The notes beneath the pieces were generated by a model. It was not told where the DNA came from and ran no database searches. It saw only the letters and a program-made list of their open reading frames with translations. Positions 9,216-40,655 of a stretch of DNA of 64,000 bases are shown one piece after another. The DNA lies in contig CM000151.3 of NCBI GenBank assembly GCA_000004695.1, forward strand, positions 4,448,001 through 4,512,000, given 5' to 3'. The DNA is from Dictyostelium discoideum. Lineage: Eukaryota. Position numbers and translations under genes: made by a program. The first letter of the stretch is position 1, and each line of letters starts with the position of its first letter.

Positions 9216-27690
<18,475 letters not shown>

Positions 27691-31755: not shown

Positions 31756-32527
31756 ATGGAACAACAACAAAATCAAACAGAATCAGTTAATAATAATTCA
31801 ACAAAAGTTTGTGAAACATTTCTCCAAAACTTACCAACTGATGTAAAAGAAAGAAAGCAATACATTTGCCAAGTTAAGAAAGCTCTCAAAGAAGAAAAAA
31901 GAAAATTAAAACAAACTAAATATGAAAAGTATGGGAAACAATGCAAACGTGATAAACACGACAAACATGACAAACATGACAAACATGACAAACATGACAA
32001 ACATGACAAGCATGACAAACATGAAGGTTATTTCCACGGCCACCGTTATCACCATGGAGGTCATCCAGAGTGTCCATCAGTAGGTTATCCAGTTCACCAT
32101 GGTTACCAAGGTTTCCCAGGTCACCATTTCGGCGGTCATCATGGTCATCACTTTGGTGGTGGTCATCATAGCTATCCAGGTCATCACGGGTCATCAAGGC
32201 TTCCCAGGTCATCATTTCGGTGGTGGTCATCATGGTCATCACTTTGGTGGTGGTCACCATGGTCACCATTTCGGTGGTCATCATGGTCATCATGATGCAA
32301 TGAATGATTGGAGTGTACAAAGTAAAATCAATCATTTAATTAGTAAGAAACAAGTTCTTATTGCTAAAACTCAATTAATTGAATCTAAAATTGCTGCTTT
32401 AACTGAAATAAATCAAACTACAACTACAACTACCACTGCTACTGCTGCACCATCAACTCCAACTCCAACTCCAACAACACCTCAACAACCAATTGACTCT
32501 GTTATCGGAAGTTTTAGTCAAATGTAA
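31756..32527 (+). CDS. His/Gly-rich repeat protein. It has an N-terminal basic region with (KHD)7, then HHGHHFGGG / GYQGFPGHHFGG repeats, then a C-terminal coiled-coil and a Thr/Pro-rich tail. The reading frame needs a -1 correction near 32189-32191 (an extra G in 'cacggg'). It is a frameshifted gene, a pseudogene, or a reference error.
   Basis: ORF 31756..32295 encodes MEQQQNQTESVNNNSTKVCETFLQNLPTDVKERKQYICQVKKALKEEKRKLKQTKYEKYGKQCKRDKHDKHDKHDKHDKHDKHDKHDKHEGYFHGHRYHHGGHPECPSVGYPVHHGYQGFPGHHFGGHHGHHFGGGHHSYPGHH, then runs into a Trp/Ser-rich nonsense tail. ORF 32099..32527 in the +2 frame continues the same repeat (GHQGFPGHHFGGGHHGHHFGGGHHGHHFGGHHGHHDAMNDWSVQSKINHLISKKQVLIAKTQLIESKIAALTEINQTTTTTTTATAAPSTPTPTPTTPQQPIDSVIGSFSQM*). 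Deleting one G from ggtcatcacGggtcatcaaggcttccca restores HHGHQGFPGHHFGGG. Confidence 0.6.
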
Positions 32528-32834: not shown

Positions 32835-32983
32835 GATGGCAACTGGTAAAAGTATTGGAATTCTTTTTACTTTTAATTTAAATTCATTGACAGTATCACC
32901 AAATTCGTTGGATGAAATAATACCTTTTAATTCTTTTAGTAATGAGTGTTTTGATGTAAATCTATCAATTGTATATTAAAACA

Positions 32984-33086
32984 TTTTATTTTATTTTATT
33001 TTATTTTATTTTATTTTATATTATTTTATTTTATTTTATTTTATTTTATTTTATTTTATTTTATTTTATTTTATTTTATTTTATTT
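32984..33086. repeat. (TTTTA)n microsatellite, ~20 units.
   Basis: Read directly. Confidence 0.9.
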
Positions 33087-33625
33087 AATTCCAATTAATT
33101 TTTTTTTTTTTTTTTTTCTACCTTAATGATTATTCTAATTTGGTTTTTATTTTTTTTTTTATTTGATTTTTTAATTTTTTTTTTTTAAATATTATTACCC
33201 CAATAAAAAAAAATATTTATAAAAAAAAAAAAAAAGGGATTTGGGGAATCCGATCAAAAAAAAAAATATACATAACATTTACATTGTCTTTTCAAAAAAA
33301 CAAGTGTTTATGTAATTTTATTTTTTAAAATATTAAGAAACTTTTTGTCACATTTTAATTTGATCGTGTAACTGTTTTAAAAAACACAATAATTTTTTTT
33401 ATTTAATTTATTTTTTTTATTTTTTATCAAAATTTCGGAAAATTTCAACATCTCTTTTAAAAGGCTGGTCGGAATTAAAAAATGAAATTAAATTTTGTTT
33501 TTTTTATTTTTTTTTTTATTTTTTTTATTTTTTTTTTTTTTATTTTCTGAAAATCATTCACACACATCACAATTCATATATTAAATAATTAAATAAACAA
33601 ATAAATAAATAAATAAATAAATAAA

Positions 33626-39532: not shown

Positions 39533-40655
39533 AAAAAAAAAAGAAAAAAAGAAGAAATTATTTAAAATTGTTTTTTTTGAAAATAAATATCGTGATATTT
39601 TTTTTGTGTGATTGAAAAAAAAAAAAAAAAAAGAATTTATTTAATTTTTTGTTAAAAAAGTGAAATAATACAAATAGCATTACGTTTTTCAAATCATTTT
39701 ATTTTTTCATTTTTAAACTGTTATGAATAAATTAAAATAAATTATGTATAAAAAAAAAAAAAAAAATAGGTTTTAAATTAATAATATAAGGTTGAGGTAT
39801 TTAATTATTAATTTTTATTTTATATTTTTTAACCTTCTTAAATTATAATATATTTTTGATTTGCTTTAAAATGTAATTATTTGATAAAACCATTAAGAAT
39901 GATAAAAAATTGTTTTTTTTTTTTTTTTTTTATAAAAAAAAAAATTTGGTGATTGTCGTAGTAATATAATTATCTACCTATCAACAATGACATAGTGCAT
40001 AGATAAATCTTTCCTTTCTCTGTCATTGGATTAGTACCGATTTATATTAGGCAAACAAACACCTTTTTTTTTAAAATTATTTTGAGCCATCTGGAACAAG
40101 TTAACTGTTTGAATGGTTAGGTCATTTCAAAATTGATATTATTATTGAAATTTGATATTAATCTTGAAATGCACTATAGAGATTAACTATAATAATATAA
40201 TTTGAGAATATTATACTCTTTTTTTTTTTTTAAATAAACAATAATAATAATAATATTTACTTTTTTTAAAGTTAAAGTGTCTTGGTTGGTTGTAAAGGTA
40301 ATGGTGGGAAAAAAAAAAAAAACTCTTTAAATACTTTTCTTTTTTTTTTTTTCAAATAAAATCAAATTGATATATTAGGAAAATACCTTTTTTTGATTTA
40401 AAGATCTCACAAATTAGATTTTTTAAATAATAATTTTTCTAAAAAGGAATAGTTTTTCAAAGGTTTTTTATTTTTTTAATTAATTAAATTTTTTTTTTTT
40501 TAACTTTAAATTTGAAAATTTTATTTGTTTTTAAATATCAAAATGATCAAAAAAAAAAAAAAAAAAAGAAAAAAAAATAGAAATAAAAAAAGGAACAGAA
40601 ATAAAAATACCATAAATACTATTGAGTTTTTTTATTTTTTTATTTTTTTTTATTT

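Follow-up and report, generated by a model that had tools for sequence, protein, structure and literature searches.

Within a 64,000-nucleotide stretch of Dictyostelium discoideum DNA, hereafter the window, the His/Gly repeats of a single gene are written in two reading frames. Does the cell carry this break, does the ribosome bridge it, or is it a flaw of the sequence record? The window has a G+C content of 22.7%. Since two of its encoded proteins are identical to the AX4 RefSeq entries DDB_G0274919 (XP_644152.1) and triosephosphate isomerase (TIM, XP_644150.1), it is consistent with AX4 chromosome 2.

In frame 1, the ATG at 31756 starts an ORF of 179 aa that ends with a TGA stop at 32293-32295, and beyond approximately codon 145 its product becomes a string rich in Ser, Trp and Arg (GSSRLPRSSFRWWSSWSSLWWW...). 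Shifted by +1, the frame gives GHQGFPGHHFGGGHHGHHFGGGHHGHHFGGHHGHHDAMNDWSVQSKINHL...SVIGSFSQM and is closed by a TAA stop at 32525-32527. Both meet behind CAT CAC (32182-32187), where the 0-frame continues as GGG TCA TCA AGG... and reading one base on yields GGT CAT CAA GGC TTC CCA GGT CAT CAT TTC GGT..., which translates into GHQGFPGHHFGGG... The post-shift frame contains a single, terminal stop, compared to 5 and 11 stops in the other two frames. Removal of one G from the GGG at 32188-32190 resulted in a continuous protein of 256 aa, comprising KHD x7, HHGHHFGG x3, 41 His and 31 Gly. The coding sequence is laid out as follows.

31756..32187, plus strand: 5' part of the coding sequence, codons 1-144, frame 1; aligns with the orthologs
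32188..32190, plus strand: GGG run with one surplus G, shifting the frame by +1; GG in the AX2-like assembly described below
32189..32527, plus strand: 3' part of the coding sequence, frame 2, codons 145-256 plus TAA; identified by ortholog alignment and dN/dS
32293..32295, plus strand: TGA closing the frame-1 ORF; placed by the frame-1 translation

Most of what a sequence-only reading had claimed for this locus is borne out by these translations. It let the His/Gly repeat leave frame 1 near 32189 and resume at +1, and the break indeed lies at the GGG at 32188-32190. The nonsense tail in frame 1 with its stop at 32295 is confirmed by the Ser/Trp/Arg string and the TGA at 32293-32295, and the repaired translation agrees with the claim that deleting a single G restores 256 continuous amino acids. 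The shift was also correctly labelled '+1', but the downstream frame was called 'frame 3' and is frame 2 by coordinate (32525 mod 3 = 2). The TGA at 32293-32295 acts as a stop solely through the surplus G.

The 5' part encodes, in this order, an N-terminus rich in Q and N, a basic helix region that is conserved (CETFLQNLPTDVKERKQYICQVKKALKEEKRKLK), the KHD repeats and the opening His/Gly repeats. In the 3' part, further His/Gly repeats give way to a long helix (predicted), then to a stretch rich in Thr and Pro, and finally to a conserved tail (PIDSVIGSFSQM). Three elements stand out along this architecture.

31944..32024, plus strand: 9-nt tandem repeat CAAACATGA, 9 copies, coding for KHD x7 (Tandem Repeats Finder)
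32086..32263, plus strand: internal duplication of a ~29-30-codon unit, YPVHHGYQGFPGHHFGGHHGHHFGGGHHS and YPGHHGHQGFPGHHFGGGHHGHHFGGGHHG (Tandem Repeats Finder, period 91, 2 copies)
32309..32416, plus strand: conserved C-terminal helix WSVQSKINHLISKKQVLIAKTQLIESKIAALTEINQ, probable coiled coil (AlphaFold2 model of the D. firmibasis ortholog; near-invariant in the alignment)

The internal duplication allows the gene to be compared with itself. Copy 1 measures 87 nt and copy 2 measures 91 nt, that is, 90 nt plus the surplus G. Around the break, CAC CAT GGT TAC CAA GGT TTC CCA in copy 1 faces CAT CAC G GGT CAT CAA GGC TTC CCA in copy 2. Where copy 2 has the extra letter, the within-gene duplicate shows just one GGT codon, which again marks this base as surplus. 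Among genomes, the repeats vary in number: the AX lineage has 7 KHD copies versus ~3-5 in other genomes of the D. discoideum clade, KHE/KHG variants of the KHD repeat occur in D. citrinum, D. dimigraforme and D. firmibasis, and the number of His/Gly units in the alignment also differs. These KHD and His/Gly copy differences are in-frame repeat-length polymorphism within a constrained gene.

Searches with the repaired protein matched orthologs of 230 aa in D. dimigraforme (E = 5.5e-78) and 253 aa in D. firmibasis (E = 2.8e-72). Taken together with the stop counts of 1 versus 5 and 11, these matches show that the frame break is no chance pattern. Each ortholog is encoded by a single exon and sits just upstream of the TIM gene, in a locus collinear with the window. 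The same locus was reached in five more assemblies via the single-exon neighbour gene encoding 1149 aa and members of the TIM cluster, so that seven other genomes could be compared (three labelled D. discoideum, and one each of D. cf. discoideum, D. citrinum, D. dimigraforme and D. firmibasis). A continuous frame in the orthologs had been predicted, and an uninterrupted syntenic ORF (MEQ...SVIGSFSQM*) was found in 7/7 of these genomes. At the shift site, D. cf. discoideum reads CAT CAC GGT CAT CAA GGT TTC CCA. For the non-repeat C-terminal part (DAMNDW to the end, in the post-shift frame), dN/dS was 0.13-0.32 against six orthologs, and for the N-terminal part it was 0.04-0.31. By this sequence-based measure the post-shift part is under purifying selection, and the ratios on both sides of the break identify the full-length frame as the one kept by selection.

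AX2 and AX4 are separate derivatives of the NC4 isolate. Across 23.5 kb, the window shares 99.6% identity with one of the assemblies, GCA_054883475.1 (locus-tag prefix ACTFIT), whose ORF matches the window gene at 771/771 nt once one G is taken out. GGG versus GG is the sole difference in the coding sequence, and downstream of the break 339/339 nt are identical. The assemblies were built from Nanopore and Illumina data, and the isolates retaining the name D. discoideum are the axenic laboratory strain AX2-214 and two diverged isolates from the wild, CR116C and OT3A (PMC12745789); coverage is given as 79x for AX2-214 versus 8x for AX4 (Table 1 in PMC12745789). Since identity to the window at this locus is just 85-90% for the two further assemblies under the name D. 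discoideum, ACTFIT is, by elimination and not by a strain label, almost certainly AX2-214.

In total, 34 differences separate the window from ACTFIT. Among them are 11 long A/T homopolymers, each 2-12 nt shorter in the Nanopore plus Illumina AX2-like assembly than in the window, at the following positions.

Window 28282, 31005, 31274, 33099, 34650, 35660, 35885, 39501, 41849, 43675 and 46510: A/T homopolymer differences

These homopolymer differences are a systematic length bias of one of the two technologies. ACTFIT is Nanopore-based and, with 11 long A/T homopolymers shortened, imperfect in its indel accuracy. Many others form two dense clusters of substitutions and small indels, at 39636-39680 and 40458-40590, in AT-rich intergenic DNA where outgroup matches are spurious. 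Five more are isolated substitutions, and one is the G.

Three of the isolated substitutions could be polarised, at 27188, 27472 and 31606; the other two were left outside this set, as 27903 falls within poly-T and 40275 is not covered by the outgroup alignment. In 3/3 cases AX2 shares its base with the outgroups and the window stands alone. Including the surplus G, four states unique to the window thus fall within 5 kb, and 27188, 27472, 31606 and 32188 together suggest a low-quality patch of the chromosome 2 reference.

The window's G at 27188 stands against a T in the AX2-like assembly, D. firmibasis and D. dimigraforme. This position, read on the minus strand, belongs to a highly conserved exon-like stretch of a giant VPS13-like gene (...EEEEKK[N/K]QLELKRKKLEKFE), and the change turns a conserved Lys into Asn; the G is probably a further reference error. 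On the minus strand, 27472 is the +6 position of an intron donor (GTACGG versus GTACGT/GTATGT), and 31606 sits ~150 nt upstream of the ATG of the His-rich gene.

We consider it probable that the surplus G is a sequencing (base-call) error in the reference record. The real gene would then be ordinary and intact, with a single exon encoding a His/Gly-rich protein of 256 aa, and would lie immediately upstream of the triosephosphate isomerase gene, while the Sanger-era record of AX4 chromosome 2 would give GGG for GG at 32188-32190 and thereby create a false +1 break and a spurious ORF of 179 aa. In the cell, the site is most likely GG and translation runs on without interruption, and a biological mechanism would not be needed. 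Weakly supported reads in an 8x Sanger assembly could account for all four unique states. What we found has the marks of a reference error: the lesion is absent from an assembly of the same lineage, the lesion-free state is ancestral and selected, and the neighbouring discrepancies are likewise unique to the window. Discrepancies between the reference and AX4 clones are known to exist, since 1916 candidate differences versus the reference were common to independent AX4-derived lines (PMC3466296). The present case resembles those described by Saxer et al. 2012 (PMC3466296) in being single-base, confined to the reference-like sequence, and found in the same genome at the same small scale. That study set aside its 1916 shared differences as reference errors or clone differences. 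However, it scored substitutions only, whereas here a 1-nt insertion in a coding repeat leads to a visible frame break. We infer that the surplus G belongs to the record and is not a true AX4 allele.

Other technical origins of the discrepancy were considered as well. A chance loss of the G from the AX2 assembly that recreated exactly the ancestral codon is a negligible prospect, since the difference is the sole short-homopolymer indel outside low-complexity A/T DNA. Band compression in Sanger reads by a local DNA hairpin finds no support, as folds around the site are no stabler than shuffles (z = +0.65, +1.27).

A biological origin of the GGG is the competing reading. The surplus G would in that case have been truly inserted, and very recently, in the laboratory lineage of AX3/AX4, leaving a truncated product of 179 aa and making the gene a strain-specific loss of function or nascent pseudogene; we regard this as unlikely. 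The GGG is present in the sequence as given, and AX2 and AX4 were separately derived from NC4, both of which speak for such an insertion. AX4-specific changes are also on record, e.g. the chromosome 2 duplication (PMC12745789). Against it, we detected no degenerative changes beyond the surplus G in the whole gene when compared to the AX2 sequence, and the 339/339 nt past the break are free of further decay, although a very recent lesion would look alike. Mutations of the nitrosoguanidine type are G:C>A:T transitions, unlike the T>G, A>C, T>G and +G observed here. In addition, a hit in one particular 772-nt gene is improbable at the very low spontaneous mutation rate (PMC3466296). The window is, moreover, also the singleton at the three neighbouring substitutions, and four real changes per 5 kb would be implausible; given the rate of ~2.5-2.9e-11 per site per generation stated for this organism (PMC3466296; PMC7466956), four real lineage changes in 5 kb are not credible for laboratory derivatives of one isolate. 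If the insertion were true nonetheless, the most widely used reference strain, AX4, would be a natural knockout of a conserved Dictyostelium-specific His-rich protein that is intact in AX2 and wild isolates. The two strains would then offer an isogenic AX2/AX4 contrast for the function of the orphan family, and one more hidden genetic difference between them would have come to light.

Decoding and splicing offer two further ways around the break. Known programmed +1 shifts are conserved across orthologs and involve a stop or slow codon and a re-pairing P-site tRNA. GGG is a rare Gly codon in the AT-rich Dictyostelium genome, and it is unique as such a trinucleotide within the His/Gly region; re-pairing of a Gly tRNA on GGU is conceivable, and the 100 nt downstream form a fold that is stabler than shuffles (z = -3.1). 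All this would suit programmed +1 ribosomal frameshifting at CAC-GGG-U, which would lead ribosomes from frame 1 into frame 2 and produce the full-length protein. We nevertheless hold it to be very improbable. Neither the near-identical genome of the same lineage nor any of the six other orthologs has the shift (0/7), which is therefore no conserved decoding signal. Moreover, the context CAC GGG UCA contains neither a stop nor an obviously slow codon in the 0-frame A site, tRNA-His is unable to re-pair (CAC -> ACG), the downstream hairpins consist of GGU GGU / CAU CAC codon repeats that recur upstream of the site and across the repeat region, and the frame-1 tail has no homolog. Like ornithine decarboxylase antizyme, yeast Ty1/EST3/ABP140 and bacterial prfB, the gene as recorded has two overlapping frames per full-length product and a shift in the +1 direction, but unlike in these systems the shift is missing from all relatives and the codon context is lacking. 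Least probable of all, with next to no chance of being right, is a short spliceosomal intron across the site whose removal restores the frame. Although 143 GT..AG intervals of length 3n+1 formally join both frames, a canonical GTAAGT-type donor occurs in 0/143, the interval is ~50% A+T compared to 96% A+T in the real neighbouring TIM intron, and the whole stretch is coding and collinear in seven other genomes. Among the three causes that the sequence-only reading had offered, sequencing error is hence the best supported, a recent inactivating mutation retains a small share of the probability, and a site of translational frameshifting finds no support, with the shift missing from the near-identical genome and all orthologs.

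With the surplus G read as a record error, the product to be considered is the 256-aa protein. No Pfam family matched it at E <= 1, and a profile search among 1.84 billion representative proteins returned only five representatives, all from Dictyostelium. That is, the His-rich protein belongs to a small Dictyostelium-only orphan family. Common motifs of the paralogs are LP.D.KERK.Y...K.LK.EKRKLK at the N-terminus and the helix HLN.KK..L..K.Q.I.SKI at the C-terminus. The middle varies and is His/Gly-rich, His/Pro-rich (P0022) or almost absent (P0021), with HHHGGHHHHSPPPP repeats in some. The paralogs P0003, P0020, P0021 and P0022 lie at other loci in the diverged D. discoideum and D. cf. discoideum genomes. 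One of them, P0003 (L001 10001-11533), apparently does not end at the conserved ...TFSQI but continues with additional sequence; a stop or an intron may have been missed there, or a tandem copy may have been fused to it.

AlphaFold2 predicted helices at 20-27, 33-62 and 187-219 of the D. firmibasis ortholog, the last with a pLDDT of 81-91; the remainder is low-confidence (mean pLDDT 52.5 for the model). Foldseek found no fold match in the PDB for this mostly low-confidence model. Two conserved helices around a variable His-rich linker are particular to the small Dictyostelium family. The protein resembles Helicobacter Hpn, the His-rich tails of UreE/HypB and Dictyostelium hisactophilin in its very high His content (here 41/256) and its His/Gly repeats, but it differs from them in having no sequence or fold relation according to Pfam and PDB. 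Judged from its composition (16% His), the protein could bind metal. Our best guess is that it is cytosolic or nuclear and may oligomerise through its helices, with the disordered His-rich linker binding divalent metal ions or sensing pH. Our literature search found no useful description of a His-rich or frameshifted gene at this locus, and the orphan His-rich family is mildly interesting in itself.

The main value of these results lies in curation and gene-model correction; with regard to recoding, they hold nothing new. If the G is an error, the AX4 model should be one exon of 771 nt encoding 256 aa, and any 179-aa, pseudogene or artificial-intron model needs replacing. Beyond this gene, the new assemblies of AX2-214 and wild isolates can be used for finding and polarising reference errors.

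Deposited models of the relatives show problems of their own. The AX2-like model has 263 aa over 902 nt (L004 16785-17686, minus strand, equal to L007 2135-3036, plus strand), compared to 256 aa and 771 nt with the conserved ...SFSQM* stop for the plain ORF; it seems to be spliced beyond the natural stop into the 3' flank. The same problem was observed in the ACTFIW model (252 aa, 845 nt). Exact look-ups of the window's 179-aa, 142-aa and repaired 256-aa products in a protein collection gave no entry. This collection also does not contain the annotated orthologs of the ACTFIR (240 aa) and ACTFIY (252 aa) assemblies, and absence from it is weak evidence where low-complexity proteins are concerned. 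Finally, the intergenic DNA between the His-rich gene and the TIM gene harbours a pentanucleotide tandem repeat, ATTTT x27, at 32983-33117, and six-frame translation of this repeat yields a fake ORF of FYFIL repeats.
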